From positions 70,648 through 134,647 of the IMG/VR virus record IMGVR_UViG_3300042303_000041: DNA of 64,000 nucleotides. The stretch is one strand, 5' to 3'. Position numbers and translations under genes: made by a program. Position 1 is the stretch's first letter. Each line of letters opens with the position of its first letter. Shown in pieces: positions 11,653 through 41,953 of this stretch. Source of the stretch: a virus (Duplodnaviria > Heunggongvirae > Uroviricota > Caudoviricetes). The notes below the pieces were generated by a model, which was given only the letters and a program-made list of their open reading frames with translations, was not told the DNA's origin and made no database searches.

Positions 11653-11677
11653 AGTGTAACCTGATAGTTATAACCTA

Positions 11678-12385: not shown

Positions 12386-12407
12386 CGTATTCCAGAAGAC
12401 TCTTACG

Positions 12408-13963: not shown

Positions 13964-13965
13964 AA

Positions 13966-15376: not shown

Positions 15377-16052
15377 CCCTTTGTAAGTCTCGTTTATTTG
15401 TCTTTACTATTTGCATATCGAATGTAAGACTAGAATCAATAGTCATATAAGTGTTCATGGGAACTTCCATAGTAACACCATCGACTCCTGCTCGTCTTGC
15501 AATATTAGTTGTAGAAGTAATTATACATCCATCTAGCATAGAAGTCAAATATAATGGACGCTTACCATTACGATATGTAATTAGTTTTTTATCAGCCCAT
15601 AACTCACATGCAGCAATAGAAGAATCAGGGAATTCTTCTAATGGTGAAGGTGAGTGTAAAATCAATTCACTATCATTTTTAGTTTCACAAACATATTCAG
15701 GAAACAAAGTCTTCCAGTTCTCAGGTAGTTCTTGTGTAACAACACCGTTGTGTACGATAGAACATTCCTCGTTTGCTAGGGGTTGATTATATTCCAGATC
15801 GCTAGTGCTGTAACGACAATGACCAATAAGATATAAAGTACCGTCATGATTTACCATTTCCTCCAAAGAATCTAAATGAACAAACTTGTCTGCAGAGACA
15901 GGTTCTTTGAACGTCATAATTTTATTATCAAATAATATAGACATTCCTGTAGCATGCATTCCACGAATCTTTGACTCATGGAATACACGTCGTATCATAT
16001 CAAAGTGATCACTCGTAGGGTTACGGATGATCGCACCAATAATAGAACACAT
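15354..16052 (-). CDS. Class-II (Ntn) glutamine amidotransferase domain protein
   Basis: 232 aa beginning 'MCSIIGAI': Cys2 nucleophile directly after Met, characteristic of class-II GATase and Ntn hydrolases. Confidence 0.55.
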   Translation of the reverse strand: MCSIIGAIIRNPTSDHFDMIRRVFHESKIRGMHATGMSILFDNKIMTFKEPVSADKFVHLDSLEEMVNHDGTLYLIGHCRYSTSDLEYNQPLANEECSIVHNGVVTQELPENWKTLFPEYVCETKNDSELILHSPSPLEEFPDSSIAACELWADKKLITYRNGKRPLYLTSMLDGCIITSTTNIARRAGVDGVTMEVPMNTYMTIDSSLTFDMQIVKTNKRDLQRVDYELSV

Positions 16053-17353
16053 TAAAAGAATCCTTCCAATGAGTTTGATTTTACAGAGTCGGGATGATAC
16101 TTCTCAAGTGTATCACGACCTAGTTTTTGCTCACAGAAGTCATACCATTCTTCGCTGTCCCACATGCTAGGTGAAACACCGTTCCATAGTTGACGCCATT
16201 CTTTATGTTCTTTATTCAGTCTGCGAGACTCAACAAAGTCAAAGCGACATTCTTCGTACTCTTTAGTTCCCAACTCTAGCATTTTCTCTCTAAAGTAAAC
16301 AACTAGGGAAATGCGTTCAGAACCTTCTTGGCAAACAATAGGTGTATTACCATGCATAACTTCATGGTTGTTAATCAACAGCAAGTCACCTGGACGAACG
16401 TTTACAGCAATACGATACTCTGGTGCAATAAGATAACCACCAGAGTAGTTACCATCATTGGACAATGTCAGCAAGTTAGACAAACCAGAAGTCAAGTCAC
16501 CAGCATCGTAATGCGCAGCTGTACGGAAAGTCTTATTGACAGTTACTGTAGTGAATGGAGTTCCAGGAACTAAGAATGCAGGATCAAGTTTCTTTGCAGC
16601 TTCCATTTGGTTATTGTATCTCCATGGAAGAAGATCTTTAAAACCCTTGGCAAGATTTTGTAAGAATGGGAATGCCATGGCAAACTTCTCTGGATTCTTT
16701 GAAGTATATGCAGTGGCACGACCATAAGGAATACGTGGATAACGATCGAACCATCCAGCGATGCCAGAGTTTACAGAGTTAGCATACGTAGTAGCGCAGA
16801 TTAACTTATCAGCTACATGCGCTGCACTTGCCTGTTGTTCTTCTTGGGGTAACAGTTTAGTTTTGTTAACCCAGTCTTCGAATTTAAACTTCTCTTTCTT
16901 AACACGTTCAATAGACCAAACGTTGGCACGATTAGAGATTGAATCTTTTTTATTGCCGTACTTCTTACGAATTTCTTCGATTGGATCTTCACCAAAAAGA
17001 TTCTCAGTAGGCTTCAAGAAGTAGTCTACAATTTCGTACTCGTACTCAGTAACCCACTCACGATTACCAAGTTTATCTGCACGTGGTCCTGCAGCTAGTC
17101 CACGATTCTGTGTTTCAATTGCAGCTTCACGCAAGCCAGCGTATGCTGCATCTTGCTGTTCTTTGGAAAAGTAGTTCTTGCGGAACTTAAAGACGATACG
17201 ATCTTCTGGATATGTTTCGTCGTCACCAACAGGTAGTGGCATGTAAACGTCACAATCCTCTTCAACCAACAAGTCATAGTGACTCTCATCAACAAACTGC
17301 CCTAGCAAATGTTCGCTGTTATACTTTCTATCAGCAACAATAATCTTAACCAT
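16052..17353 (-). CDS. 2OG-Fe(II) dioxygenase (TET/JBP-like nucleic-acid base oxygenase candidate)
   Basis: 433 aa; 'HYD'...~50 aa...'HGNT'...'RIS' gives the HxD...H...RxS facial triad and 2OG-binding pattern. Confidence 0.55.
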   Translation of the reverse strand: MVKIIVADRKYNSEHLLGQFVDESHYDLLVEEDCDVYMPLPVGDDETYPEDRIVFKFRKNYFSKEQQDAAYAGLREAAIETQNRGLAAGPRADKLGNREWVTEYEYEIVDYFLKPTENLFGEDPIEEIRKKYGNKKDSISNRANVWSIERVKKEKFKFEDWVNKTKLLPQEEQQASAAHVADKLICATTYANSVNSGIAGWFDRYPRIPYGRATAYTSKNPEKFAMAFPFLQNLAKGFKDLLPWRYNNQMEAAKKLDPAFLVPGTPFTTVTVNKTFRTAAHYDAGDLTSGLSNLLTLSNDGNYSGGYLIAPEYRIAVNVRPGDLLLINNHEVMHGNTPIVCQEGSERISLVVYFREKMLELGTKEYEECRFDFVESRRLNKEHKEWRQLWNGVSPSMWDSEEWYDFCEQKLGRDTLEKYHPDSVKSNSLEGFF

Positions 17354-26895: not shown

Positions 26896-26925
26896 ATTAT
26901 ACATCAGAACCGAATTAAAGTAAAC
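26896..26925 (-). promoter_or_regulatory. T4-early/sigma70-type promoter (GTTTAC -35, 18-nt spacer, TATAAT -10); copy 1 of a repeated cassette
   Basis: Minus-strand sequence GGTGTTTACTTTAATTCGGTTCTGATGTATAAT read directly; nearly identical to the copies at 35469 and 37888. Confidence 0.6.
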
Positions 26926-26940
26926 ACCTAAATGAAAAAA

Positions 26941-26957
26941 CCCTACACTCGGTAGGG
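26941..26957 (-). terminator. Stem-loop CCCTAC-n5-GTAGGG immediately upstream of the promoter cassette (terminator for the preceding gene)
   Basis: Inverted repeat read directly; same architecture as the cassette at 35501. Confidence 0.45.
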
Positions 26958-26989
26958 TTATTCTTGAAAAGTAAACTTTTGGGTTACAT

Positions 26990-29603: not shown

Positions 29604-30551
29604 TCACTTGAATTTGCATTGTGACATAACCTCAGTCAATGCTGCCATGATATTTAATTCATGATCAGCAACGAATGCAGCTTTGTATTGATAGTCTGCT
29701 AGGATAAGTACCAGTTGAGGAATAGAACCTGCTTCAAGCATATTGTTAGATTGATCATACAGAGTACGGAAAAGAGTAGTAGAATCTCCATCACTGGATT
29801 TTGCTACCCACTTACGAGTCTCAGTATAGTTCTTTTCTTTAAGAGCTTTGAATAGTTCTTTGTAAGTCTGATCAGACAGGTTAACCAGAATACCACTATC
29901 GATCTTTCCAGATACAGAGTAACGTTGCAACTCATTGAGAATACGACGATAGTCTGGAAAGTGCTTCATCACCAACTCGGCAACGACCTTAGAATCAAAG
30001 TCAATACCTTCTTGCGTCAAGATTTGAGTAGTGCGTTTAAAGAAAGTTGCTGCAATCTCTTGTTGTTCTTTCTTATCGATTTTAAATTCGATAACTGCGC
30101 AACGAGAGTGGATGGCATCCAGCAACTTGTTCTTAAAGTTACACGTGAAGATGAATCGGCAGTTGCTACTAAACTCTTCAATGAACGCACGCAACGCTGG
30201 TTGAGTAGAGTTAGGATTTAGGTAGTCTGCCTCATCTAGGATAACTACCTTCTTGGAATCTGTTAGAGAAATTGTTGAAGCAAACCCTTTGATTTTCGTA
30301 CGCAAAGTATCAATACCTGATTCTTCAGAACCGTTAATCATTAGATACTCTGCACCGATCTCATTACACAGTGCTTTTGCAACTGTGGTTTTTCCTACGC
30401 CTGCTGTTCCGCAGAACAAAAAGTGCGGGAGTTCTCCCTGAGCGATGTATTGTTTAAAGGTTGCTTTCAATGATTCTGGCAAAACACATTCATCAATTTT
30501 TTGTGGACGGTATTTCTCTACCCACAAAAACATATCACGTGATTCAATCAT
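29604..30551 (-). CDS. 44: Clamp-loader ATPase (gp44-like, RFC family)
   Basis: 315 aa; 'KYRPQKIDECVLP', Walker A 'GTAGVGKTT', 'SRC' motif; colinear with T4 gp44. Confidence 0.85.
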   Translation of the reverse strand: MIESRDMFLWVEKYRPQKIDECVLPESLKATFKQYIAQGELPHFLFCGTAGVGKTTVAKALCNEIGAEYLMINGSEESGIDTLRTKIKGFASTISLTDSKKVVILDEADYLNPNSTQPALRAFIEEFSSNCRFIFTCNFKNKLLDAIHSRCAVIEFKIDKKEQQEIAATFFKRTTQILTQEGIDFDSKVVAELVMKHFPDYRRILNELQRYSVSGKIDSGILVNLSDQTYKELFKALKEKNYTETRKWVAKSSDGDSTTLFRTLYDQSNNMLEAGSIPQLVLILADYQYKAAFVADHELNIMAALTEVMSQCKFK

Positions 30552-30554
30552 AAT

Positions 30555-30848
30555 TTAGTCTTTCAAAAATTCAAATAAAGATGCTGTGGATTTTTCTTTA
30601 GTCTCTTTATATTTACCATTGGTGGCAATATAGCATTTAGCATGGTATGGTCTCATATGAGAACCATGCTTACGTTTAGGTTTACTTTCTTTGTAGGCTT
30701 CTGACAAATAAACATCTTCACCACAAACTTTACATTTAACTGTAGTAAACTCTGCCTTACCATAAACAGTCATATGTTTATAGGAATCAGGGGACTCTCT
30801 CCACAACTTCGCATCCAAGTCTTTCAACTTAGGCATAATATATTCCAA
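30555..30848 (-). CDS. Small zinc-ribbon-like protein inserted between genes 45 and 44
   Basis: 97 aa; 'CKVCGEDVY...HAKCY' Cys/His cluster, basic. Confidence 0.4.
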   Translation of the reverse strand: MEYIMPKLKDLDAKLWRESPDSYKHMTVYGKAEFTTVKCKVCGEDVYLSEAYKESKPKRKHGSHMRPYHAKCYIATNGKYKETKEKSTASLFEFLKD

Positions 30849-30856
30849 AAGGTTAA

Positions 30857-31519
30857 TTAGGCATCAAAAGTAGAGTCAGCTTCAACAGCAACATAGTAAA
30901 CTAAGTCACCAGTGATGCTCTTAAAGCGAGAGATTTTCTTGCTGGAAATACTTACAGCATAATCACCTGGAAGCATCTTTAGGTTATCAACCTTTAGGTT
31001 AACGTGGAATGTTTTATCAGTTGCACCAACTGGTTCTGAGAAGGAGTTGCTTGATGCATTCTTCTTATCACCAACTTGGATATCCAAGACAGTTCCGTCA
31101 CCGATGATAGAAATATCTTCAGAACGCAGAACAGATGCAGTACGCTTGATCATTTCAAGCATAGATGCAGTTAGGGTAAAGTTAACCTCAGCTTCTGGGA
31201 AGTTGATGCTTTTTGTAGGTGCGGTTAGAACAGATGGTTCTGCACCGTAGAATTTGATACGGCGAGAGCCTTCTTTGATAGTTACAAACTTCTCGGTAAA
31301 GTCAAGTTCAGGATCATTGAACAGCGACATTGCACCAAGGAATTCATTTAAGTCATAGATACCAAAAGTCTCTGGGAAGGTTTCAGCAACAGTGGCGTCA
31401 GACATAACGTTTTTCTGTGCAGAAATGGTTGAAATCTTATTGCCTTCTTTAAGCAAAAGATTATTGTTGACTTGAGCAAAGTTCTTAAAGATTGCTGTAG
31501 TTTCTTTGGATAATTTCAT
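30857..31519 (-). CDS. 45: Sliding clamp (gp45-like)
   Basis: 220 aa; N-terminal 'MKLSKETTAIFKNFAQVNN' and 'YDLNEFLGAMSL' align to T4 gp45; C-terminal 'YYVAVEADSTFD' matches T4 'YVVALEADSTHDF'. Confidence 0.85.
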   Translation of the reverse strand: MKLSKETTAIFKNFAQVNNNLLLKEGNKISTISAQKNVMSDATVAETFPETFGIYDLNEFLGAMSLFNDPELDFTEKFVTIKEGSRRIKFYGAEPSVLTAPTKSINFPEAEVNFTLTASMLEMIKRTASVLRSEDISIIGDGTVLDIQVGDKKNASSNSFSEPVGATDKTFHVNLKVDNLKMLPGDYAVSISSKKISRFKSITGDLVYYVAVEADSTFDA

Positions 31520-31595
31520 AGGGGTTCCTTTTCATTAGTTTCATTACTATGTATAAACAATTATGCCCTAAAACAAAGTTTAGGGCAAATTTATT

Positions 31596-32393
31596 TTACT
31601 TAGTCATCATTAGTGCATTGAAGTTGCTAGGCACGACAATGGTTTGTACCTTACCAGTTTTAATACCTTCAGAGATATTCAACATAGCTTGGGCTTGCAT
31701 AAAGGCGATAGAACTACCAGAGTTGTTAGCCAATGCTGCCATACGACGAGACTCAGCTTCAGCAGTCTTAACTTCTACTTCTTTCTGCTTCAATTCATTC
31801 TTAGCTTTGACTAATTCGTTGGCACTTGCAACAACTGAGTCAGCTGGAACTACGTTACGAATCAACACTTGGCTAATAGTAATAGAACCATCCAGCTTTT
31901 CTTCTGCAAGGTTACGAGTGATTTCGTCCTTGATAAAGTTTTCCATATCACTACGTGCATCTGCCATATCCAATGCTTCGTACTTACGAGCTGCTTTGTA
32001 GATAGAGTTACGAGCATTCTGCACAATGTAATTATACATCACATAGGTGTCACCTTTGATTTCAGCGTGGAAACTTTTGTTCTTAGTCGAATACAATTCA
32101 GCAACTTGTCCTGGATTGACGTTATAGACTACGACCGCATCTAAGTCTTTCATGGTGGAGTTATCCTTAGTGACTGGTGTCATGTCGTTAAGCACAACGT
32201 TCACATCCTTGATAGGGAATGTAAGTATATCACCAATCAATACCTGATTGAACGAACCTGGAAGCAATTCTCCACTTTGGACTTGCTTGTCAAAGCCAAC
32301 ACGCACACCAACTTCACCAGTCTCGATTCGAGTGCATGCTTGCAAAGAAGCAACAGCCAAAATCAATGCACCAATTTTCATAAACGATTTCAT
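31596..32393 (-). CDS. SPFH/band-7 (stomatin/prohibitin-like) lipoprotein
   Basis: Signal peptide plus lipobox-like 'LQAC'; SPFH-like core with a C-terminal coiled coil; the track start (TTG at 32399) probably should be the ATG at 32393. Confidence 0.6.
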   Translation of the reverse strand: MKSFMKIGALILAVASLQACTRIETGEVGVRVGFDKQVQSGELLPGSFNQVLIGDILTFPIKDVNVVLNDMTPVTKDNSTMKDLDAVVVYNVNPGQVAELYSTKNKSFHAEIKGDTYVMYNYIVQNARNSIYKAARKYEALDMADARSDMENFIKDEITRNLAEEKLDGSITISQVLIRNVVPADSVVASANELVKAKNELKQKEVEVKTAEAESRRMAALANNSGSSIAFMQAQAMLNISEGIKTGKVQTIVVPSNFNALMMTK

Positions 32394-32402
32394 AATCAAC
32401 CT

Positions 32403-32579
32403 TTAAAATAAAACAACAATACCAACAAGGAATGCGATAACAACAAGAGATAAAGCCATACTGTATGAGAAAGTCTTAGCAGCATCCCATTTTTCAGATT
32501 TGGTCATTTTGTTGAATGCTTCAATACCAAAATAGAACGCAGCAAAAACTAAAACAAACGCTAGTAAAATTTTAATCAT
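32403..32579 (-). CDS. Unannotated 58-aa two-TM membrane protein (NfeD-like partner of the SPFH protein?)
   Basis: Manual translation MIKILLAFVLVFAAFYFGIEAFNKMTKSEKWDAAKTFSYSMALSLVVIAFLVGIVVLF; stop lies 10 nt before the SPFH ATG; below the ORF-track size cutoff. Confidence 0.5.
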   Translation of the reverse strand: MIKILLAFVLVFAAFYFGIEAFNKMTKSEKWDAAKTFSYSMALSLVVIAFLVGIVVLF

Positions 32580-32915
32580 TTAGTTTTCCACAGAGTATTT
32601 CACATCATGTTCGTACAAGAAAAACAAACAGCACATAGCATGAGCCAAGTGGTGGATATTAGATTCTGGATCGATTTGTTCGCCAGCTTTCCATGCCCAA
32701 ATATGTCTTTCCATTGCATCAAAATAACGACGCTTAGAATCTGGGACATTCTTCCAATTGTCTGGTTCGTATTTCTCTGCGCCAAAGGTCAATACCTTGA
32801 CCATCTCTGCCATAGCAAGTGGTGGGATAAGTCCATACTGGAGTTTGCCTCCATCGAACTTACGCCCACCACTACTGGCTAATTGAGATCGTTTAACTTC
32901 TTCCAATGTAGCCAT
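32580..32915 (-). CDS. Conserved phage domain protein (resembles the N-terminal domain of dATP/dGTP diphosphohydrolase family proteins)
   Basis: 111 aa; 'KFDGGKLQYGLIPPLAMAEMVKVLTFGAEKYEPDNW' pattern recalled from that family; assignment tentative. Confidence 0.35.
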   Translation of the reverse strand: MATLEEVKRSQLASSGGRKFDGGKLQYGLIPPLAMAEMVKVLTFGAEKYEPDNWKNVPDSKRRYFDAMERHIWAWKAGEQIDPESNIHHLAHAMCCLFFLYEHDVKYSVEN

Positions 32916-32924
32916 GATTTATTC

Positions 32925-33173
32925 TTAGGCTTGGAACGCACGAGTACCAAGAACTCGATTTGCAACTGCAACCATACGCTTGCTTGGAGTGCCAATGCGG
33001 TACTCTACCGTGTCAGCGCCAGCACGACGATTGCTGTAAATGCAATGCCCTTGATTGCGCAACTTGTAAATTGCATCGTGAGGATTGGTCAAGCCAAAAC
33101 CAGAAACGATATCTCGTGAAGTTACGGTGTGACCTGTAACCAAGTAATTAAGCAGCTTTGTTTGTTTAGTCAT
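32925..33173 (-). CDS. Small helix-turn-helix/winged-helix DNA-binding protein
   Basis: 82 aa; basic, 'LLNYLVTGHTVTSRDIVSGFGLTNPHDAIYKLRNQG' HTH-like. Confidence 0.45.
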   Translation of the reverse strand: MTKQTKLLNYLVTGHTVTSRDIVSGFGLTNPHDAIYKLRNQGHCIYSNRRAGADTVEYRIGTPSKRMVAVANRVLGTRAFQA

Positions 33174-33218
33174 AAAATTCCTATATGGATTATAAAATGG
33201 GACAGGATGTCCCAGGGA

Positions 33219-33701
33219 TTATTCTACTTCGATACCATTCTCGCGAAGGATAGCGTTGAAGTCTTCGTAGTCCTGATCAAAAGTCTCGGACTGACCGATT
33301 ACATCTTGTAGACGATTCTTATCAGCAACAGGGGCTGATGCGACCTTAGAGGTCTTCTTGGCTACCTTTGCAGTAGCCTTAACTGCTTTGACCTTTGGAG
33401 TCTTAGCAACTTTCGCAGCCTTCACAGGCTTCGTTGCTGCATCTTTCGTGTATTGAGAAAGTTCAGCAGCAGTCGGCACGGGGAATGCGTACACACCACG
33501 GTCGACTTTGTTGGGACCAAACAACCAGTTTGGATAACCAACCTTTGCGCCACCAGAGTCTCGCTTGGAAGCGAGTTCAGCAGCAATTGAATTGACTTCT
33601 TTCAGAGTGATTTGGGCACTCTTCTTCAGAGAAGGATTGTGCTCAACGTAAGCAACAACCATCTTTTTCTGGGACATGGACAAGTCAGCGAATTTCAACA
33701 T
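33219..33701 (-). CDS. Histone-H1-like DNA-binding protein with K/A/P-rich repeats
   Basis: 160 aa; 'KPVKAAKVAKTPKVKAVKATAKVAKKTSKVA' repeat tract; N-terminal motif 'VDRGVYAFPVP' shared with the CobS-like ORF. Confidence 0.5.
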   Translation of the reverse strand: MLKFADLSMSQKKMVVAYVEHNPSLKKSAQITLKEVNSIAAELASKRDSGGAKVGYPNWLFGPNKVDRGVYAFPVPTAAELSQYTKDAATKPVKAAKVAKTPKVKAVKATAKVAKKTSKVASAPVADKNRLQDVIGQSETFDQDYEDFNAILRENGIEVE

Positions 33702-33736
33702 AATATATTCCTTTGAGTTTCAAGTTTTGATAAGTT

Positions 33737-33766
33737 ATTATACAACAATTACGAATTAAAGTCAAC
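33737..33766 (-). promoter_or_regulatory. Sigma70/T4-early-type promoter variant (GTTGAC-18-TATAAT) upstream of the H1-like gene
   Basis: Minus strand GGTGTTGACTTTAATTCGTAATTGTTGTATAAT; paralog of the cassette at 26896. Confidence 0.5.
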
Positions 33767-33775
33767 ACCTTCTTG

Positions 33776-34918
33776 TTAGAAGGGGATTTCTTCTTCAGTT
33801 TTGTATTCTGGTGCACTAGGTGCAACAGCTACAGGCTCAGGGGTAGAAACCTTCTCGAACAGATCCAAGAATGCAACTTTCGTAGCAGCGTCAAAACGAT
33901 TGCAACAAAGTTGCACTGCCTTGGTGCGATCCTTGAAGATTGCAAAGGCACGAACAATGTGAATCATACGACGTGTAGTGATTGTCTCGTCGACACCACC
34001 GTCCTCGAAAGTACGGCGAATTGCTTCTGCCCACTTTACAAGGGTTTCTGCGAAATCCTCATCAACTGCATTAAAGGACTCCATCAGATTCTTAATAATT
34101 TTGACTTCGATTTTTGCGGAAGGATATTCCTGTTCGAATGTAACAGCGAAACGTTCCAAGAATGCTTCGTTCAGCACGTTAGTACCGATGTAACGACCAT
34201 CGTCTGAACCTTTACCCTTAGTGTTTGCAGTGGCGAAAACGTTGAATCCAGGAGCAGGAACTACCATCTCGTTCTTGAGTTTAAAGTAGTATGGCTTACC
34301 TTCAAGAATAGGTTGCAAGCACAGCAAGGTGTTTGCGGAACCAGCATCGATCTCGTCAAGCAACAGTGCGGTACCATTGCGCATTGCAATCAGCACTGGA
34401 CCTTCGACAACTTCTACGTTACCATCGGTCAAAGTCTTGGAACCGATAAGTTGTTCCTCGTCTGTCATCATGTTCAGGTTAACACGAATGAGAGGACGTT
34501 TGTGCTTGGCACAGATTTGCTCAATCATAGTGGACTTACCATTGCCAGTAGGACCAGAGATATATGCAGGATAGAAAATTTTGGACTTGATAATGTTCTC
34601 TAGGTCTGGGTAGTTACCAAATGGAACAAAGTTCGAATCCTTCTTAGGGATCAAAGAATCCAAGTTGCTGTAGTCTACAATGAAGGACTCAACAACTTCT
34701 TCTTTGGGAACTACTGCAAGATTAGTTGCACGACCAGGCAAGGCATACACGCCACGACTGACTCGGTTTTGCATCAACCAACGTGGTTGTTTCTTAGTGT
34801 CAAGTGCACGCATCGTATCCAGCAATTGCTGGTTCAATACAGTACCAGACACAGCCACATCGGGGAACATCTCATACAGTTTACCCTCGAACTCAGTCAC
34901 AAAATTTGCATCACTCAT
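33776..34918 (-). CDS. cobS: MoxR/CobS-like AAA+ ATPase
   Basis: 380 aa; Walker A 'GPTGNGKST', Walker B 'LLLDEID', compact AAA+ core of CobS/MoxR type; paired with a vWA protein. Confidence 0.65.
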   Translation of the reverse strand: MSDANFVTEFEGKLYEMFPDVAVSGTVLNQQLLDTMRALDTKKQPRWLMQNRVSRGVYALPGRATNLAVVPKEEVVESFIVDYSNLDSLIPKKDSNFVPFGNYPDLENIIKSKIFYPAYISGPTGNGKSTMIEQICAKHKRPLIRVNLNMMTDEEQLIGSKTLTDGNVEVVEGPVLIAMRNGTALLLDEIDAGSANTLLCLQPILEGKPYYFKLKNEMVVPAPGFNVFATANTKGKGSDDGRYIGTNVLNEAFLERFAVTFEQEYPSAKIEVKIIKNLMESFNAVDEDFAETLVKWAEAIRRTFEDGGVDETITTRRMIHIVRAFAIFKDRTKAVQLCCNRFDAATKVAFLDLFEKVSTPEPVAVAPSAPEYKTEEEIPF

Positions 34919-34940
34919 AAAATCTCCATAACAAAAACAT

Positions 34941-34970
34941 ATTATATATCAAGTCACAATTAAAGTCAAG
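34941..34970 (-). promoter_or_regulatory. Sigma70-type promoter variant (CTTGAC-18-TATAAT) upstream of the CobS-like gene
   Basis: Minus strand GATGCTTGACTTTAATTGTGACTTGATATATAAT. Confidence 0.45.
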
Positions 34971-35172
34971 CATCTTTTTCCATGCGCTCTCTAGCTTGTC
35001 GTAAAGAGCGCATCACTTCAGCTTGCTTATGCTTTGGCAAGTCTGCAACCAAACCTGCGATTATCGACTCGTAGGTGCCAGTCACGTAAGAATACGTGGC
35101 GTAGGTATCCATACACAGCTGCGAAGTGACACGCAATTCGGCAGCAACATCGCTATAAGTAACTTTAGACAT
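34966..35172 (-). CDS. Hypothetical small protein (68 aa)
   Basis: ORF track. Confidence 0.35.
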   Translation of the reverse strand: MSKVTYSDVAAELRVTSQLCMDTYATYSYVTGTYESIIAGLVADLPKHKQAEVMRSLRQARERMEKDA

Positions 35173-35186
35173 TCTTTTCTCCTAAT

Positions 35187-35438
35187 TTAAGCAGCAACCA
35201 CTTCACGAGAGTACCAACCATTGCGTTCGATTTTGCGTTTCGCAGACATCATTTTCTTACGAAAAGCCATGAATTCTGGAGTGGGATCTGCGTTGATACC
35301 ACCAAGAGCCATCATAGCCAACAGAGCAGCATCACGTTTGGCATAAGTTTCAACAGCATGCAGAGGGATCAACACTTGTCGAGCCGAACCATGGCCATGG
35401 GCATCTTTAAACACAGGGCTGGTATAGATCACTTTCAT
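35187..35438 (-). CDS. Hypothetical 83-aa protein (start refined to MKVIY; the track ORF begins inside the promoter -10)
   Basis: RBS-like 'AAAGGAAACGAA' precedes the ATG at 35438; the leader is paralogous to the 26865 gene leader. Confidence 0.4.
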   Translation of the reverse strand: MKVIYTSPVFKDAHGHGSARQVLIPLHAVETYAKRDAALLAMMALGGINADPTPEFMAFRKKMMSAKRKIERNGWYSREVVAA

Positions 35439-35468
35439 TTCGTTTCCTTTTCGATTCATCATAGAGTT

Positions 35469-35498
35469 ATTATACATCAGAACCGAATTAAAGTAAAC
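35469..35498 (-). promoter_or_regulatory. T4-early-type promoter (GTTTAC-18-TATAAT), cassette copy
   Basis: Minus strand GGTGTTTACTTTAATTCGGTTCTGATGTATAAT, identical to the 26896 copy. Confidence 0.6.
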
Positions 35499-35500
35499 AC

Positions 35501-35517
35501 CCTACTACCAGTAGGGT
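35501..35517 (-). terminator. Stem-loop CCCTAC-n5-GTAGGG followed on the coding strand by a U-rich tract (UGUUUACUUUAAUU) that overlaps the -35
   Basis: Read directly; follows the stop of the 712-aa gene. Confidence 0.5.
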
Positions 35518-35535
35518 TATTCGTTTACTTTCGTT

Positions 35536-37674
35536 TTAGGCTACGTATCCAATAAATTTATTCAAGAGCACTCGAGAAGTCATTTTATTGTTAAGATGTT
35601 TAGTCAAACTACGTGCAATTGCTTTAGCAGTTTGATCGCCATTAACACTAAGTTCATCAGTATTAGTTTCCAGCTTATTAGTTGGAACAATAAACAAGTC
35701 ATCACGACCAGTATTCTTTAAAGAAGCAAAGCCATTAGTACGAATTTCGGTACGCATAATCTCTATCATAGTATCAAAGTTACCCTTAAAATCAGGAATA
35801 TTACTTTTAATTGCTTGAGACAAAACTCGACGAGAATTATTACAAACATAAAACCCAATAGTATTAATGTTGTAACGATCTTTAATCATTTTAAGAATCG
35901 CATGAGTTTGCACAGATCCGTCACGACTAATAGGATAATTCTTTTTAGTTACAGGGTCTTGCAAAAAGTTTTTGCAGTTAATCTTCTTTGAAGAAGTATA
36001 ACTATAACGATATGCATCAAGATTACTACCATCAGAGGTTACTAATGAACCACCTTCGCCATCTGTAAGAGTAATAAGAGACATTTTCTCTACATTATTC
36101 TTTTGGATAAACGTATTGATATATGGAACCATATATGCCAGTGCTTCATTCAGTGGTGTACCACCTGTAGAATATTCCCCATTTTTGCAATAACGCAATT
36201 TATGGAAACTATTTAAACGACGAATCATAGTATTGAATTCTACATTAGACATTTTGTTAGAGAAGAACTCCATCAAAGCAAATGTATGTACAGCATTACT
36301 TAACTTCTTATCAGTATTGGGAGAATAAAAAGCATTACGAATATCATTCATTTTACCTTGTTCACCAGTTAACAGTGGATCATATTGCGTAGTGAAAGCA
36401 AATACCTGATAAGGAATCTGAGCACGCTGGCAAAACATAGCCAAGTTAATAACCTGTTTAATGGTATCATCCAAAACATAATCCATTGAACCAGACCAGT
36501 CCAGCAAGAAAATCATACCATGATTTTTACCTTGCTGAGTAGTAGTCATACGTTTGAACAAGTCATCTTTGAGTTTGTATGCCCAAACTTTCTTCATATC
36601 CAACGAACCGATACGAGATATTTGGGCACGTTTGTAGCTGGTAGCGGACTTGCGCATCTCAAATTCTTTAATCAAATACCCAACTACCTTAGAAGAATCA
36701 TCTTTGTAGGATTGAATATTCTTTTTCTCATACTCAGAAATATCTTCATCGATTGGAGCAGTATCAGCAATAACTTGTTTATACGCAATGATAGGATTAA
36801 ATTGATAATTCTCATCCAGAGTATAGTAGTTATACTCAGTGTTTTCATCAGCATAAACTTCAAGATTCTTAGAGAAGGTTTTCTCAGTTACAGATTCTAA
36901 TTCTTTTTCAATCTGTTCTTCAGTGACGTTCTCACGAACCTGTACTGCTTTACGTGCACGTTTTGGTTCATCGCTTTGTTCAGTTTCAGTTTCATCGTCG
37001 TCTACAAAAACAATTTCAGACTCGTCATCCTCGTACTCAGAATCATAGTCATCTTCTTCGTTATCTTCTTCGTCTTCATCCTCAACAGTATTCTGAATTA
37101 TCAGTTTACGCACAGCAGCTGCTGCCTTAGAATATTGATAAATTTCTTCAGCCAATTGATGAACTTCAGGAATAGTTTCTGTTTTCTCAGCACGATTAAC
37201 AAAGTCGCATTCATCGCTATTGAACGATACACCACAATCGTATCCAGCTTTGAAGTAAAGGTTGATTCGATCGATAAGGTTCAGAGTAGACATATCTGAA
37301 ATTTTAGATACACCAAAGAAGTCTCGTTCATTGAGTTCTTTGTAACCTTCGTGCATGGTTTTACGAATGCCAGGGAACTTGCGCTTCATCAACTTCTCAA
37401 TACGCACGTCTTCCAGCACGTTGAGATAACCTTTAATGTTACGGTTAGTCTCCATTGGGGTGATGTAGTCTTCAGTCGTGTAAAGTGCGTGACCGACTTC
37501 GTGACCAATAAGCATACCCTCCATGGCTGGAGTCATGTCTTTCCATTGGGGAAGTGACAGCACACGAGACTTGATGTCAAACGATGCAGTGCTAACACGT
37601 GCACGAACAACGGTGATGTTCTCAGCTGCAAGCAAACGTGCAGCGATGTCGGAGGAGTTCAGTTTAGTAGTCAT
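35536..37674 (-). CDS. cobT: CobT-like von Willebrand factor A (vWA) protein with an N-terminal HEVGH zincin-like motif and a central acidic tract
   Basis: 712 aa; MIDAS 'LLDWSGSM' in the C-terminal half; 'HEVGHALYTTEDY...LNVLED' near the N-terminus; 'DEDEEDNEEDDYDSEYEDDESE' acidic stretch. Confidence 0.55.
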   Translation of the reverse strand: MTTKLNSSDIAARLLAAENITVVRARVSTASFDIKSRVLSLPQWKDMTPAMEGMLIGHEVGHALYTTEDYITPMETNRNIKGYLNVLEDVRIEKLMKRKFPGIRKTMHEGYKELNERDFFGVSKISDMSTLNLIDRINLYFKAGYDCGVSFNSDECDFVNRAEKTETIPEVHQLAEEIYQYSKAAAAVRKLIIQNTVEDEDEEDNEEDDYDSEYEDDESEIVFVDDDETETEQSDEPKRARKAVQVRENVTEEQIEKELESVTEKTFSKNLEVYADENTEYNYYTLDENYQFNPIIAYKQVIADTAPIDEDISEYEKKNIQSYKDDSSKVVGYLIKEFEMRKSATSYKRAQISRIGSLDMKKVWAYKLKDDLFKRMTTTQQGKNHGMIFLLDWSGSMDYVLDDTIKQVINLAMFCQRAQIPYQVFAFTTQYDPLLTGEQGKMNDIRNAFYSPNTDKKLSNAVHTFALMEFFSNKMSNVEFNTMIRRLNSFHKLRYCKNGEYSTGGTPLNEALAYMVPYINTFIQKNNVEKMSLITLTDGEGGSLVTSDGSNLDAYRYSYTSSKKINCKNFLQDPVTKKNYPISRDGSVQTHAILKMIKDRYNINTIGFYVCNNSRRVLSQAIKSNIPDFKGNFDTMIEIMRTEIRTNGFASLKNTGRDDLFIVPTNKLETNTDELSVNGDQTAKAIARSLTKHLNNKMTSRVLLNKFIGYVA

Positions 37675-37677
37675 AGA

Positions 37678-37863
37678 TCAATTATACTCCAACTCTTCAT
37701 TAAAGTCAACAGGGAATGCTTCGTTGTACTCGTACTCTTCGAGTATGCACTCAACTTCTTCTCGATTCACAAGAGTCAGTCGTCCACTGATTACAGCGTA
37801 GTCCTGCAAGCCATACTCTCCAGCCAGCTGGATAAGCTCGAAGTCATTAAAATCATCCCACAT
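37678..37863 (-). CDS. Hypothetical small acidic protein (61 aa)
   Basis: ORF track; own promoter and RBS 'GGAG'. Confidence 0.4.
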   Translation of the reverse strand: MWDDFNDFELIQLAGEYGLQDYAVISGRLTLVNREEVECILEEYEYNEAFPVDFNEELEYN

Positions 37864-37887
37864 AGTAATCTCCTAATCAATACAGCT

Positions 37888-37917
37888 ATTATACATCTGC
37901 AGCGAATTAAAGTAAAC
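37888..37917 (-). promoter_or_regulatory. T4-early-type promoter (GTTTAC-18-TATAAT), cassette copy
   Basis: Minus strand GGTGTTTACTTTAATTCGCTGCAGATGTATAAT. Confidence 0.6.
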
Positions 37918-37928
37918 ACCATGAAAAA

Positions 37929-37949
37929 TGCCCCTACATTTCTGAGGGG
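37929..37949 (-). terminator. Rho-independent terminator (GCCCCT-n9-AGGGGC followed by AUUUUU) after gene 46
   Basis: Read directly; sits between the gp46 stop and the promoter cassette. Confidence 0.55.
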
Positions 37950-37977
37950 CATTCTGGAGAGATCGTTTACTTAAGAA

Positions 37978-39693
37978 TTACTTAACGATTATAGAGAAAT
38001 CATTACGTTTCTCAAACTTAATAACCGATCTAAACTTATCAAATAACTGGTCACCTTTATGGCTAATAACAAAGATATTAGTTTTGTCGCCGAATTGATC
38101 CATTAGATTTAAGAAGTAATCAGTTCCTGCAGTATCTAAAGAAGAATCAAAAATCTCATCTAACAATAATAGATTGGTATTTACAGAGTTCTTCATCTTA
38201 GCTATTTGCCTCCATGTAAAGAGAATAGCTAAATCAATACGCATTTTCTCACCTTCAGAGAAACTTGCATATGTAAAATCATCACGATGACGAGACTTAA
38301 TAGATTCATTAAATGATTCGTCTAACTCAAAGTGAATATAAGTATCCATGGCGTTTAGATACTTGTTGATTAACTTATTCATAATCGGAAGATACTCACG
38401 AATAATGGCAGTCTTAATACCAGTATCTTTAAGTAAAGAAGAAGCCACATCCTCGAGGTTTCTAGTTTCTAATAATTGAGTTTTAGTCTTAATCTTTTCT
38501 AAAGCATTTTGTGCCAACTCTTTTAACTTACGTTTCTCTTCATCGACATTATGCGTATCTGCTTTATGACTTTCAATCTCCGTAACTAATTCTTTATTCA
38601 TTCGATTCAACATAGTAATGTTTGCATTATATGTAGAAACAGATATATTCAAATCAGTAATCTCAGAAAGAATAGTATTCATTAAAGAAAGATCAGCATT
38701 TAGTTTATGGTGGATATCTTCCAGTTCAGTTAAACGTTGATTCTCAGATTCAATTTTAGCATTCAATTCGTGTAAAACACTTTCCTTATGCTCATGTGGT
38801 ATACCCTGCGTGCAGGATGGGCAAATACTATTCTCATTGAAGAATTGTGCCTCATGGTTCCATTGCTCGACTTTGGAAAGCAATTTAGTTTTCCACCCCT
38901 TCGCTTCTTCAATGTCGTTATCGACTTTACCCTTCTTCGCAACTCGTGATTGTAGTGTGGTAATCTTAGCAAGTGTTGTAGCCACCGAACTTTCGCTTCG
39001 CTGTATTTCTGAGTTATTATTTTCGACTTTAGATAGTAACGATTCAATAGCTTCTGACTTGGCAGTTTTAAGAGTGTTAATGAGAGTTGTCTGTCCTTCC
39101 ACCGCCAGTTTCGCCACAGAAACTTCATTTTCGATGCGTGTAATACTCGCCTTTGTCTCATTAGCTTTTTCTTTCAACAACTGATTCATGGTAGAGAAAA
39201 TACGAATATCCAATATATCTTCAATAACTTCACGACGTTGGTATGAAGTTAGTTGCATGAATGGAACAAACGATGCGCTACCAAGAATAACAACTTGTGT
39301 AAATGTCTTATAGTTTAGACGAATAATTTGCTGCTCAAGAACCTTCTGGTAATCACGTGCTGCTGCATCTTGATTCATTAATTCGTCATTGACATAAATC
39401 TGAAACACATTAGGCTTGATACCTCGAACTACTCGATACTCTTTACCAGAAATAGAAAATTCAATAGTGACTAGACATCCCTTGCCATTGATTGAATTGA
39501 TCAATTGACCTTTATTGATATTGCGGAAAGGCTTGCCGAATAAGGCAAAGCAGAGAGCATCAAGAATAGTAGACTTACCTTCACCATTCTTACCGATGAT
39601 AAGAGTCGTAGTAGACCTATCCAATAAAACAGTATTGGGCGAGTTGCCTGTAGATAAAAAGTTTTGCCAAGTTATAGACTTGAATATAATCAA
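37978..39693 (-). CDS. 46: Rad50/SbcC-like recombination ATPase (gp46-like)
   Basis: 571 aa; N-terminal Walker A 'GKNGEGKST', long central coiled coil with a CPSC zinc hook, C-terminal 'LLLLDE' Walker B/D-loop. Confidence 0.8.
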   Translation of the reverse strand: MIIFKSITWQNFLSTGNSPNTVLLDRSTTTLIIGKNGEGKSTILDALCFALFGKPFRNINKGQLINSINGKGCLVTIEFSISGKEYRVVRGIKPNVFQIYVNDELMNQDAAARDYQKVLEQQIIRLNYKTFTQVVILGSASFVPFMQLTSYQRREVIEDILDIRIFSTMNQLLKEKANETKASITRIENEVSVAKLAVEGQTTLINTLKTAKSEAIESLLSKVENNNSEIQRSESSVATTLAKITTLQSRVAKKGKVDNDIEEAKGWKTKLLSKVEQWNHEAQFFNENSICPSCTQGIPHEHKESVLHELNAKIESENQRLTELEDIHHKLNADLSLMNTILSEITDLNISVSTYNANITMLNRMNKELVTEIESHKADTHNVDEEKRKLKELAQNALEKIKTKTQLLETRNLEDVASSLLKDTGIKTAIIREYLPIMNKLINKYLNAMDTYIHFELDESFNESIKSRHRDDFTYASFSEGEKMRIDLAILFTWRQIAKMKNSVNTNLLLLDEIFDSSLDTAGTDYFLNLMDQFGDKTNIFVISHKGDQLFDKFRSVIKFEKRNDFSIIVK

Positions 39694-40751
39694 ACGACCT
39701 CCGTATTAATAGCTTCTGTATGAAGACTCTTCAAGAAATTTTTAATTTGTTCTTTGTCAACGTCAGTGTTAAGAGAATCAATATAATTAGAAAGAACAGA
39801 TACTGTATCTTCTAAATTTATTTCCTCACCAAGTTCACCGTCACCAAATTCTGATAAGTCTTCAATGATTTTTATTTCATGACAACCTTTAGTATACAAC
39901 TTCTGAACAAACTTATCAAATTTATAATAGTCAGTCTTATTAGTTACAACTAATCTCACATAACAATCGTTTAAATCGTAAGCGTCGAGGTCGATGGGGT
40001 CTTGCTCTTTATCGTCGTACTCGAGTCTGGCGAACATCGTATAACTATTGTGAACGAATTCAAGCTGTCTTGTTTGTAAGTCGAACAGATGAAACCCTCT
40101 GGGATCGTTATAGTCCTGCCATGTAAGTTCATAGGGATTTCCGAGATAGTAAATATGACTATCGTTACTACGGTGGTGATAATGACCAGAAAAGACAAGA
40201 TCAAACTTCTTGAAAATGTCTTTAGAAAATCCTTCATGGCTTTCCATTCCTCTATACATTGAGAACCCTGCGATCTCAAGATGCCCCATGCATAGTTCAG
40301 CGTTAGTGTTGTTTAATGTATCTAAACTTTGTTGATAATTATCTGGACAAATCCATGGAACCATACAGATAGGAACACCATCTACATAAATTGTTTCAGG
40401 AGAACTAATAACATCGATGTTAGAATACTCAGCTAAGATCAACTCTGGAGAGTTAACTTCATTAGTATTTTTATAGTAAGTGTCGTGGTTTCCAGCAAGC
40501 ATATGAACACGAATTCCTCGCTCCATCAACTTATCGAAAAACATCTCACGTGCACGATGCAAAGAATAAAAGTTAATATACTTGCGTCGATCAAACGTAT
40601 CACCAAGAATCAATACAGTGGTAATACCTTCCCTATCTAATGTAGGGAAAAAGATATTATCATAAAACTTTTGAAAGAAGTCTAGGAAAGCAACGCTATC
40701 ATTCCTTGCACCAAAATGCTGATCAGTTATGATTGCTACTTTCATATTCAA
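39690..40751 (-). CDS. 47: Mre11/SbcD-like nuclease (gp47-like)
   Basis: 353 aa; calcineurin-like phosphoesterase motifs 'ITDQHFG', 'GDTFD', 'GNHD', 'GHYH'. Confidence 0.8.
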   Translation of the reverse strand: MNMKVAIITDQHFGARNDSVAFLDFFQKFYDNIFFPTLDREGITTVLILGDTFDRRKYINFYSLHRAREMFFDKLMERGIRVHMLAGNHDTYYKNTNEVNSPELILAEYSNIDVISSPETIYVDGVPICMVPWICPDNYQQSLDTLNNTNAELCMGHLEIAGFSMYRGMESHEGFSKDIFKKFDLVFSGHYHHRSNDSHIYYLGNPYELTWQDYNDPRGFHLFDLQTRQLEFVHNSYTMFARLEYDDKEQDPIDLDAYDLNDCYVRLVVTNKTDYYKFDKFVQKLYTKGCHEIKIIEDLSEFGDGELGEEINLEDTVSVLSNYIDSLNTDVDKEQIKNFLKSLHTEAINTEVV

Positions 40752-41953
40752 ATAAACCCCATCTTTCTATTGGTAATAGATTTTTCCATGTTGCGGGTTT
40801 GTTCATTGAACACTTCTGCAATAGTGTAACGTTCAGCTTCTTTACCACGTGGACGAACTGGAAGTTTAACTTCGAGTTTATCTGCCAGGGCTTGTGCTTG
40901 TTCAACCTTTAGATTATCAAATGATAAGATATCAAAGCAACGACCTGGACGAACAAGAGCAGAGTCAATATCACGGATGCTTGGGAGATTAGTAGAGAAG
41001 ATCATCTTCTTACCCTTTGTAGTCACGAGACCATCACCAACGTTAAGGAAACGGTGCATCATAGTATTACCATCTGTTCTTGGCTTCAAGAAAGCATCGC
41101 TGTCTTCCAAAACCATAACGCTGGCGTCGTCTTCAATAAACCGTGCAAAGAGATAATCCTTTTCAAGGATAGTGGCGTCATAGGTTACCATGGCGCTAGA
41201 ATTTGTATGAGCCAACAGTCCCCGAATGAATGTTGTCTTGCCAGTTCCAGGTGGACCGATCAGCAATAAAATATTTGCTGAAGATTCCATATAACGCTCG
41301 TAGTAAGATCCAAGAGTCTCACCATTCAAGAATGGATACATCTCTTCGCAAGGCATTCTATCACGATTTAGTGGAACGTTAACAGAATTACCATCAGAAG
41401 AATAGATCCATTCGATGTAAGAAGTAACGACATCGAAATGATTCTCAACTAGATCAATGATAGATTCTGCAAATTCAGTATCACCAAAAGCTCTAACGGT
41501 GGTAGAGTTAGAGTTAACACTGTATGTAATGTAGTTTAATTCTTCTTTGAATATAACAAACCCATTAGAGGAACTGCTTTGTACAAACAAGCAAGTTATA
41601 AATTGATCTTCTGCCCAAGATGCCCACTTTTGTCTGTTACACAAAACTGTAGTTTCACGATGAATAGTTTGTTTGCCGAGAGCAACTCTTTGATCTAAGA
41701 TCTGAGATGTGATCAAGTCATCGAAATCAGAAACACCGAGAAATATCTTTTTATCTTCCATAATATCTTTCAAATTAAACATGTTGTCTGTAGAGTCCCA
41801 AGTAAATCTCTTGAGAAGTCTAGTTGATCCTTTTGCTATGTTGCGCACCTTGCGTCCAGCTGCTGTACTAATACCTCTTCGAGAAATCGCTGGTCTAGTG
41901 CCTGAACGTAAATCTGCAAGCAATTTATCTATTGAGTTCGCCATCGGGTTCAC
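40748..41953 (-). CDS. AAA-family ATPase (classic AAA with an N-terminal extra domain; Bcs1-like architecture)
   Basis: 401 aa; Walker A 'GPPGTGKTT', Walker B 'VLEDSD', SRH 'ALVRPGRCFD'; occupies the T4 alpha-gt position between 47 and 55. Confidence 0.6.
   Translation of the reverse strand: MNPMANSIDKLLADLRSGTRPAISRRGISTAAGRKVRNIAKGSTRLLKRFTWDSTDNMFNLKDIMEDKKIFLGVSDFDDLITSQILDQRVALGKQTIHRETTVLCNRQKWASWAEDQFITCLFVQSSSSNGFVIFKEELNYITYSVNSNSTTVRAFGDTEFAESIIDLVENHFDVVTSYIEWIYSSDGNSVNVPLNRDRMPCEEMYPFLNGETLGSYYERYMESSANILLLIGPPGTGKTTFIRGLLAHTNSSAMVTYDATILEKDYLFARFIEDDASVMVLEDSDAFLKPRTDGNTMMHRFLNVGDGLVTTKGKKMIFSTNLPSIRDIDSALVRPGRCFDILSFDNLKVEQAQALADKLEVKLPVRPRGKEAERYTIAEVFNEQTRNMEKSITNRKMGFI

Follow-up and report, generated by a model that had tools for sequence, protein, structure and literature searches.

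Why would a T4-like virus carry, between gp46 and gp45, a CobS-like ATPase together with a CobT-like protein that keeps an intact HExxH motif, and are these genes a recent acquisition? We consider this question for a stretch of 64,000 nucleotides of the IMG/VR virus record IMGVR_UViG_3300042303_000041 (positions 70,648 to 134,647), referred to here as the window. The minus strand carries every gene from 30857 to 41953, with gp45 at 30857-31519 (-), gp46 at 37978-39693 (-) and ten minus-strand open reading frames (ORFs) between them (Table 1). An earlier note on this DNA counted about 11 genes in this block; its gene list and motifs are otherwise mostly borne out. In our view the block is probably a gp46-gp45 interval that a freshwater T4-like lineage has inherited and transcribes early, in which a cobST-like motor and adaptor form the core and the remaining genes are separate modules.

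Inheritance of the gp46-gp45 interval

Sequence comparison indicates that the block is inherited and is not a recent island, because five related metagenomic contigs (L004, L006, L007, L008 and L009) keep nearly all of it. Their homologues of the 712-amino-acid (aa) CobT-like protein are 84, 67, 58, 57 and 55% identical to it. The shared order is the cobT-like gene, variable small genes, the cobS-like gene, a gene for a 137-172-aa protein, a winged helix-turn-helix (wHTH) gene, a PF18909 gene, a gene for a 58-aa protein, an SPFH gene and gp45. L008 lacks both the 58-aa and the SPFH genes and keeps the rest. Base composition gives no clear island signal, with a G+C fraction of 0.33-0.46 within the block vs 0.34-0.41 outside.

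A tblastn search with the 712-aa protein found 464 phage records, nearly all of them myoviruses of Synechococcus or Prochlorococcus; Pelagibacter phages are among the few others. The matches are mostly annotated as 'peptidase' in GenBank. The order in cyanophage S-RIM8 is gp47, gp46, small ORFs, peptidase, two hypothetical genes, cobS ('porphyrin biosynthesis'), gp154 and gp45, and that in pelagiphage HTVC008M is gp46, three hypothetical genes, peptidase and cobS. The marine cobS/'peptidase' pair (Sullivan 2010 PMC3037559; Liu 2021 PMC8651126) thus belongs to the same families as the pair here, PHROG 249 and PHROG 459 (33-37% identity to the cyanophage proteins), with the same order (cobT-like, then cobS), the same place after gp46 (and, in S-RIM8, before gp45) and the same invariant HExxH and MIDAS residues. 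The flanking genes differ, however, and comprise here a 160-aa paralogue of the CobS N-terminus, the wHTH and PF18909 genes and an SPFH cassette, not DUF3310 and others. Genes at matching positions in S-RIM8 have no detectable relation to those of the window. Two specific equivalences, of the PF18909 protein with the S-RIM8 DUF3310 gene ahead of gp45 and of the 160-aa protein with a 179-aa S-RIM8 gene, were rejected, as no similarity was detected. The block is this lineage's copy of the known marine T4-like cobS/'peptidase' pair, set among unrelated small gene cassettes.

These comparisons bear on two claims made earlier. The block had been described as an inserted accessory island, which does not fit a pair that follows gp46 in both S-RIM8 (between gp46 and gp45) and HTVC008M, nor the synteny of almost the entire block across five metagenomic relatives. 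It had also been thought undescribed. However, cobS is already treated as a cyanomyovirus core gene (PMC3037559, PMC2984593, PMC9983427), Liu et al. 2021 (PMC8651126) named the homologue cobT and described cobST as cyanophage core genes, and PHROG 459 and hundreds of cyanophage entries in GenBank annotate the homologue as 'peptidase'. A 2026 preprint, moreover, shows an M48C-like peptidase fold for the N-domain of true CobT (see below).

The lineage is related to cyanomyoviruses, pelagimyophages and the Methylophilales phage Melnitz, and the phage falls in a clade of its own, apparently from freshwater, that is known from metagenomes alone. Its closest isolates by gp46 are Melnitz strains (50.5% identity); the gp46-gp45 interval of Melnitz (L010) is without cobST and holds DUF1599, peptide deformylase, Hsp20 and DUF3310 genes. 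When the DNA of the block was compared with 50,697 phage records, the sole match was 129 bp inside cobS. A scan of genome contigs yielded no reliable host clue, the top matches being phage contigs binned into metagenome-assembled genomes (MAGs; an Aquiluna MAG, 43%).

The CobS-like ATPase and its CobT-like adaptor

The earlier identification of a CobS-like AAA+ ATPase is well founded. The 380-aa protein matches AAA_5/CbbQ_C (Pfam E 1.8e-17) and PHROG 249 'porphyrin biosynthesis' (E 4e-104), and has the Walker A motif GPTGNGKS and the Walker B motif LLLDE. Its residues 51-361 align to residues 2-320 of the solved Brucella CobS (9ujv_A; E 5.9e-28, 101 bits), that is, over the whole length of CobS, and are preceded by a phage-specific N-terminal extension of about 50-60 aa that CobS does not have. 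Among solved MoxR-class proteins, CobS (101 bits) is a better match than CbbQ (64) or NorQ (42), and midasin outscores CobS only through carrying several AAA domains. Given that the best full-length solved match is CobS, yet the score against the CobS equivalog TIGR01650 is 94.5 bits for a cutoff of 558.55, we regard the protein as CobS-like and not as an equivalog of CobS.

No Pfam family matches the 712-aa protein, which aligns along its entire length with PHROG 459 'peptidase' (E 6e-175). The protein consists of a zincin-like N-domain (aa 1-195), an acidic disordered linker (aa ~195-260), a conserved segment ahead of the vWA domain (aa ~345-382) and the vWA/MIDAS domain itself (aa 383-~665). 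All three motifs reported for it earlier are present: the N-terminal HEVGH (residues 58-62), the acidic tract (66 residues, 32 of them D/E) and the MIDAS sequence DWSGSM (residues 392-397), of which D392, S394 and S396, together with T506 and D538, are invariant among 45 sequences. A full AlphaFold2 model built with 45 homologues (predicted local distance difference test, pLDDT, 76; predicted template modelling score, pTM, 0.67) comprises a folded N-domain, a disordered acidic stretch (199-246), a long helix (314-353), a low-confidence part (353-382, with low pLDDT at 353-359 and 366-382) and a vWA domain. Foldseek matches the full model to vWA domains, including that of NorD from NorQD complexes.

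Modelled alone, the N-domain reached a pLDDT of 90 and a pTM of 0.86, with a helix (7-17), three strands (21-25, 31-33 and 38-42), a helix (49-65) that carries HEVGH and then further helices. The model agrees with the suspicion in the earlier note of a gluzincin-like domain, in that the predicted fold is zincin-like and places H58, E59 and H62 in helix 49-65, after a mixed sheet. The nearest folds include the ArdC antirestriction protease, CapP, IrrE/PprI, Spartan, M48 enzymes and minigluzincins, and Foldseek points to the same families with weak E-values.

The same architecture has been reported for true CobT. In a preprint on Brucella melitensis CobSTN (bioRxiv 10.64898/2026.07.21.739949), the CobT N-domain consists of a helix, a three-stranded sheet and eight helices and resembles peptidase M48C, the linker is disordered over about 90 residues, a 'shaft' enters the CobS ring, and the vWA domain has a MIDAS that faces CobN. 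The phage adaptor has the same order of parts, and the acidic disordered linkers span 65-90 residues. By analogy, we propose that the segment at aa 345-382 may be the counterpart of the CobT shaft. In contrast to this shared layout, the phage proteins lie far under the equivalog cutoffs, and the adaptor is without a direct sequence match to CobT. Searched against NCBIfam, TIGR01651 included, the 712-aa protein has no match at E up to 0.1; PF06213 gives an E-value of 0.47 only, with at best 5 of 45 family members matching, and PF11775 gives none.

The connection to CobT runs through intermediate proteins. With hhalign, the profile of the 712-aa family (A2; A8 denotes that of its N-domain) aligns with an adaptor from an E. 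coli phage-plasmid (L014) at E 1.6e-9, and the latter matches Pfam CobT (E 4.5e-27) and CobT_C (E 3.7e-82). A2 likewise aligns at E 5.9e-10 with a Desulfacinum protein (L028) that matches TIGR01651 (E 9.5e-13) and solved CobT (9uka_G; E 4.9e-4, with LNVLEDVRIERLM aligned to FDAVEQARVEAIG).

The HExxH motif sets the phage protein apart from true CobT. HE..H occurs in 240/240 retrieved homologues, and H58, E59, H62, N85, E88 and D89 are the same throughout, even in phage-plasmid proteins that are 23% identical to that of this phage. The invariant E88 and D89, on the next long helix of the model, are candidate third metal ligands. The Brucella CobT N-domain sequence, recovered from the PDB alignment, has no HExxH and a helix (TRGLGDSMALRQARHN) at the equivalent place. 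With the motif invariant in the homologues and missing in Brucella CobT, the mobile-element versions have thus retained what was lost in at least one metabolic relative. Since the phage adaptor, unlike true CobT, keeps it intact, its N-domain is expected to bind metal and possibly to cleave something.

NorQ-NorD and CbbQ-CbbO likewise pair an AAA_5 ATPase with a CbbQ_C lid and a vWA/MIDAS adaptor, although CobS is the better match to the ATPase. In Pararobbsia alpina (L034 2875-5455), a CbbQ/NorQ-like ATPase gene is followed by one for a 600-aa vWA protein, and in this adaptor the LIEDVRIERLM helix is shared but HExxH has degenerated to HAIGH (HAxxH).

Related pairs are also found outside T4-like phages. 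Relatives of the CobS-like ATPase occur in 4,460 plasmid records. An Aeromonas plasmid adaptor (L012) has HEVGH, a very long acidic linker and CSGSM, and its relatives occur in 1,161 plasmid records; most adaptor-bearing plasmids are non-mobilizable, ~100-115 kb in size and from Klebsiella, E. coli, Yersinia pestis, Salmonella and Acinetobacter. A tblastn search of plasmids with the 712-aa protein itself gave no match, and the plasmid link was made through the ATPase match and hhalign. The phage-plasmid pairs, annotated as 'cobalamin biosynthesis protein CobT' and 'porphyrin biosynthesis protein', share with the window pair the order of adaptor then ATPase and, in the adaptor, HEVxH, (L)ED..(I/V)E(R/K), a long acidic linker and D.SGSM. 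They are much nearer true CobT, as the CobT_C match given above illustrates, their N-domains are ~23-26% identical to that of the window protein, and they adjoin dnaE, not gp45 and gp46. In the two plasmids inspected, from Aeromonas (L012 3330-6957) and E. coli (L014 4983-8422), the CobT-like gene (HExxH intact) and the AAA gene lie directly upstream of dnaE. These plasmid hosts and SAR11 are not known to have CobN, which argues against a general role in cobalt chelation.

By analogy with true CobST and NorQD, we infer a motor and adaptor mechanism. The CobS-like ATPase would form a ring, the CobT-like N-domain would bind the ATPase lid, and the conserved segment before the vWA domain would enter the pore of the ring. 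The MIDAS face of the vWA domain would hold a client protein, which could be remodelled or metallated at the expense of ATP.

Side genes, promoters and stem-loops

By sequence homology, the 160-aa protein is probably the only side gene tied to the cobST core. Its N-terminal ~85 residues are homologous to the N-terminal extension of the CobS-like protein (34739-34918, -; hhalign of A9 vs A4, 97.1%, E 6e-11), and the two share the motif PxWL..N.V.RGVYxxP. A K/A/P-rich tract follows that serves as a variable linker, missing or different in many of 45 homologues, and the last ~14 residues (EDFNAILRENGIEV; pattern (D/E)(D/E)F..xLR..GIxV) are conserved. Among 1.84 billion proteins the family makes up 87 representative clusters, and searches of Pfam and the PDB, linker histones included, gave no match. 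The label 'H1-like' that the protein had received describes its composition only, the AKP tract being often absent from its relatives.

Table 1. Coordinates of genes, protein motifs, promoters and stem-loops in and around the gp46-gp45 interval of the window.
Feature	Position	Strand	Remarks
Stem-loop after gp46, then UUUUU; terminator half of a PeSL	37927-37954	-	-18.6 kcal/mol, z -3.8
P1, early-type promoter GTTTACTTTAATTCGCTGCAGATGTATAAT	37888-37917	-	same position in L004 and L006; related ones in L007 and L008
61-aa acidic protein	37678-37863	-	homologues in L004, L008 and L009, 52-89% identical
P2, for the cobT-like gene	37681-37710	-	kept in L004, L006, L008 and L009
CobT-like adaptor, 712 aa, four parts	35536-37674	-	PHROG 459 'peptidase'
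HEVGH motif, aa 58-62	37489-37503	-	first long helix after three-stranded sheet; invariant in A2 and A8
Conserved segment, aa 345-382	36529-36642	-	near-invariant sequence, pLDDT <50 over most of it
MIDAS DWSGSM, aa 392-397	36484-36501	-	T506 and D538 complete the site
P3 within a PeSL: stem-loop ACCCTACTGGTAGTAGGGT and early promoter 35469-35498	35469-35517	-	-16.2 kcal/mol, z -3.7
Small ORF listed as 96 aa, variable slot	35187-35477	-	likely 83 aa, start 35438
68-aa protein, no assigned function	34966-35172	-	homologues in L004 and L006 only
P4, for the cobS-like gene	34941-34970	-	position kept in L004, L006, L007 and L008
CobS-like MoxR-class AAA+ ATPase, 380 aa	33776-34918	-	AAA_5, CbbQ_C, PHROG 249
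P5	33737-33766	-	position kept in all five relatives
160-aa protein, three parts	33219-33701	-	N-domain paralogous to CobS-like N-terminal extension
Stem-loop, then UUUUAUAAU; terminator-like, after the 160-aa gene	33198-33214	-	-9.8 kcal/mol, z -2.0
82-aa winged-helix protein (HTH_39)	32925-33173	-	Pfam E 1.4e-4; PHROG 4973 E 1.5e-11
111-aa protein, PF18909	32580-32915	-	Pfam E 1.5e-35; PHROG 801 E 1e-46
58-aa protein, two hydrophobic segments	32403-32579	-	adjoins SPFH gene
SPFH/Band-7 lipoprotein, 265 aa from ATG	31596-32393	-	PF01145 E 1.9e-18; PHROG 200 'lipoprotein'
Stem-loop after the SPFH gene, ahead of gp45	31564-31587	-	-14.2 kcal/mol, z -4.3

The gene for the 111-aa protein was missed by the earlier reading. 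The protein matches PF18909 (dGTP_diPhyd_N, the N-terminal domain of dATP/dGTP diphosphohydrolase) with 121.5 bits vs a Pfam cutoff of 27, over profile positions 3-91 of 99, and is 75-96% identical in the five relatives. A description of the small proteins as acidic therefore suits the 61-aa protein and not this one. Elsewhere in the window, at 9509-17353 (-), a DNA base-modification toolkit adjoins replication genes and includes DUF6267 (9509-10744), the amino acid:DNA transferase ADDT (PF18724; 12944-13963) and a Tet/JBP dioxygenase (PF12851; 16052-17353); the PF18909 protein of the block might belong with it. The winged-helix assignment of the 82-aa protein is upheld by HTH_39 and PHROG 4973, the HTH_39 match being barely above threshold (22.1 vs 21.3 bits), and the gene is kept in 5/5 relatives.

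The SPFH protein has an N-terminus, LILAVASLQAC, that fits a PROSITE-style lipobox pattern, and its gene and the 58-aa gene are adjacent in L004, L006, L007 and L009. The two genes are also adjacent, at 37% and 45% identity, in the freshwater Synechococcus phage BUCT-ZZ01 (L013 8793-9801), beside NadM/NAMPT genes. Because the pair is present or absent together in the relatives and recurs beside unrelated genes in BUCT-ZZ01, we regard it as a mobile two-gene cassette. As in bacterial SPFH-NfeD operons, a membrane-associated SPFH protein is encoded beside a small membrane protein, with joint gain and loss of both. Here, however, the SPFH protein is a predicted lipoprotein and the partner, a hairpin membrane protein of only 58 aa without an NfeD/OB-fold region, has no match in Pfam, NCBIfam or PHROG and no similarity to NfeD. 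The lipobox SPFH protein with a small transmembrane partner thus stands as described earlier, whereas the SPFH-NfeD logic that had been attached to it does not.

The remaining small ORFs are variable. The slot of the 61-aa protein holds a GIY-YIG gene in L007. The listed start of the 96-aa ORF falls within the -10 box of its promoter, and M14 (35438) is the more likely start; the ORF is found in L006 (93% identity), is missing from L004 and L009, and is replaced by unrelated genes in L007 and L008. More generally, the small genes between cobT-like and cobS vary among the relatives. On the other side of gp46, directly upstream of gp47, is a gene for a 401-aa AAA protein (40748-41953, -), and versions of 368-402 aa are in the same place in 5/5 metagenomic relatives. 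No Rfam RNA family was found in 30500-40000.

Five early-type promoters of the pattern (G/C)TT(T/G)ACTTTAAT-N12-TATAAT lie in the block (P1-P5, with -35 ends at 37917, 37710, 35498, 34970 and 33766). The core pattern ACTTTAAT-N12-TATAAT occurs six times in the 64 kb of the window, where 0.03 copies are expected by chance, and 5/6 copies are inside the block; the sixth, at 26896-26925 (-), is 30/30 identical to P3 (35469-35498). The same relative positions were found in the five related contigs, and the promoters reported earlier are thus well supported as real. P2 is embedded in the coding 3' end of the 61-aa ORF, and the -35 of P4 overlaps the stop codon of the 68-aa ORF.

A terminator hairpin had been placed before each of these promoters and an early promoter before every gene, which is true in part. 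Only P1 and P3 are directly behind strong hairpins; P5 is preceded by a weak one after the ATPase gene (33768-33783; -8.2 kcal/mol, z -1.8), and P2 and P4 have none. The last four genes (wHTH, PF18909, 58-aa and SPFH) form one closely packed operon with a hairpin and a -10 element upstream and without a matching -35.

The terminator-plus-promoter units are promoter early stem-loop elements (PeSLs), cassettes that mediate gene shuffling in the hyperplastic regions of T4-like genomes (Arbiol 2010 PMC2839356; Comeau 2014 PMC4122927). As in other T4-like phages, a stem-loop and an early promoter form a composite that occurs as near-identical repeats and borders slots with differing genes. The comparison with published coliphage and vibriophage PeSLs concerns their arrangement, and two of the five promoters here (P2 and P4) are without a stem-loop. 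A composite of a CCCTAC...GTAGGG stem-loop and a promoter is common to 26925, 35498 and 37917 (alignment A10, three copies), the third PeSL copy of the window being at 26896-26975 (-).

Competing readings of the block

It had been suggested that all ten genes form one inserted system for host takeover or counter-defence. Relatives with CobT-like proteins of 55-84% identity keep the gene order, and one strand and early-type promoters are common to all genes; this stable synteny could reflect a functional link and thus counts against a division into separate modules. We nevertheless find a single ensemble very improbable. Cyanophages and HTVC008M carry the cobT-like/cobS pair but not the other genes, the 58-aa/SPFH pair occurs without cobST neighbours in BUCT-ZZ01 and is absent as a whole from L008, the small genes between cobT-like and cobS differ among relatives, the genes at matching positions in S-RIM8 have no detectable relation to these, and the base composition gives no clear sign of an island. 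In our preferred reading, the PF18909 gene, the wHTH gene, the 58-aa/SPFH cassette and the small variable ORFs would be separate modules in a PeSL-punctuated hyperplastic region around the motor and adaptor. A role in host takeover or counter-defence is possible.

The points that weigh against our preferred reading concern mostly the adaptor. Homology to true CobT is supported transitively and by the predicted fold only: hhalign of A8 vs the B. melitensis CobT N-domain sequence was not significant (probability 0.3%), and profile searches of PDB sequences with A2 and A8 found no CobT. The equivalence of aa 345-382 with the shaft is drawn solely from position, conservation and low pLDDT, and the metal-site arrangement of H58, H62 and E88/D89 is read from the sequence and predicted helices.

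The client of the motor is the point on which readings of the core diverge. Liu et al. 2021 (PMC8651126) proposed a hijack, given that the CobN of many bacteria is without CobS and CobT of its own: the phage pair would join host CobN and raise (pseudo)cobalamin for B12-dependent nucleotide metabolism. This is the usual auxiliary metabolic gene (AMG) reading in the literature, and it is consistent with true CobS being the closest solved relative of the ATPase and with an adaptor whose domains are in the order of true CobT, where the MIDAS face lies against CobN in CobSTN. We consider it rather unlikely here. Both proteins are far under the equivalog cutoffs (CobS 94.5 vs 558 bits; CobT no match), the invariant HExxH is missing in true CobT, pointing to an added or different activity, and among window ORFs of at least 280 aa there is no cob gene (cobN included) and no ribonucleotide reductase gene of any class. 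Homologous pairs also occur in about 1,160 plasmid records and in HTVC008M. Because these include enterobacterial phage-plasmids and a SAR11 phage, whose hosts are not known to have CobN, a client other than CobN is favoured over the chelatase model. It is possible, if doubtful, that this client is a substrate of an AAA+-coupled protease: with an active CobT-like zincin, the vWA domain would capture a host protein such as a defence or replication factor, and the CobS-like ring would unfold it or bring it into position to be cleaved at an early stage of infection. Down to 23% identity, phage-plasmid proteins included, HExxH and the N-x-x-E-D helix do not vary, while the HExxH motif is lost in true CobT and reduced to HAxxH in a NorD-like relative. 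The nearest folds, from ArdC to the minigluzincins, the early-type promoters and the location of the pair next to replication genes in T4-like phages and dnaE in phage-plasmids are all in keeping with this. However, the activity and the third metal ligand are predictions from sequence and model alone, a conserved HExxH is also found in non-catalytic metal-binding domains, PADLOC models of defence and anti-defence families matched 0/10 block proteins, and the association with replication genes may merely reflect gene order in these genomes. As a tentative generalization, to which we give limited credence, the cobST-like pairs of phages and phage-plasmids might be AAA+-driven zincin machines and not B12 genes, in which the adaptor would keep a working HExxH site that true CobT has lost, the MIDAS would seize a host protein and the ring-bound complex would cleave or dismantle it early in infection, with the 160-aa paralogue as a regulator or decoy for the binding partner of the ATPase extension.

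For this window the practical outcome is modest: the annotation is corrected, the supposed island is inherited and the block is split into separate modules. The wider interest lies in cobS, a near-universal single-copy gene of marine cyanomyoviruses that is routinely counted as a B12 AMG, a role that has been inferred. Given that its partner has the architecture of true CobT yet keeps a zincin HExxH, and that homologous pairs are found in elements whose hosts are not known to have CobN, the question of what the pair does becomes more testable, and it could be addressed in the E. coli phage-plasmid versions, which are open to genetics.

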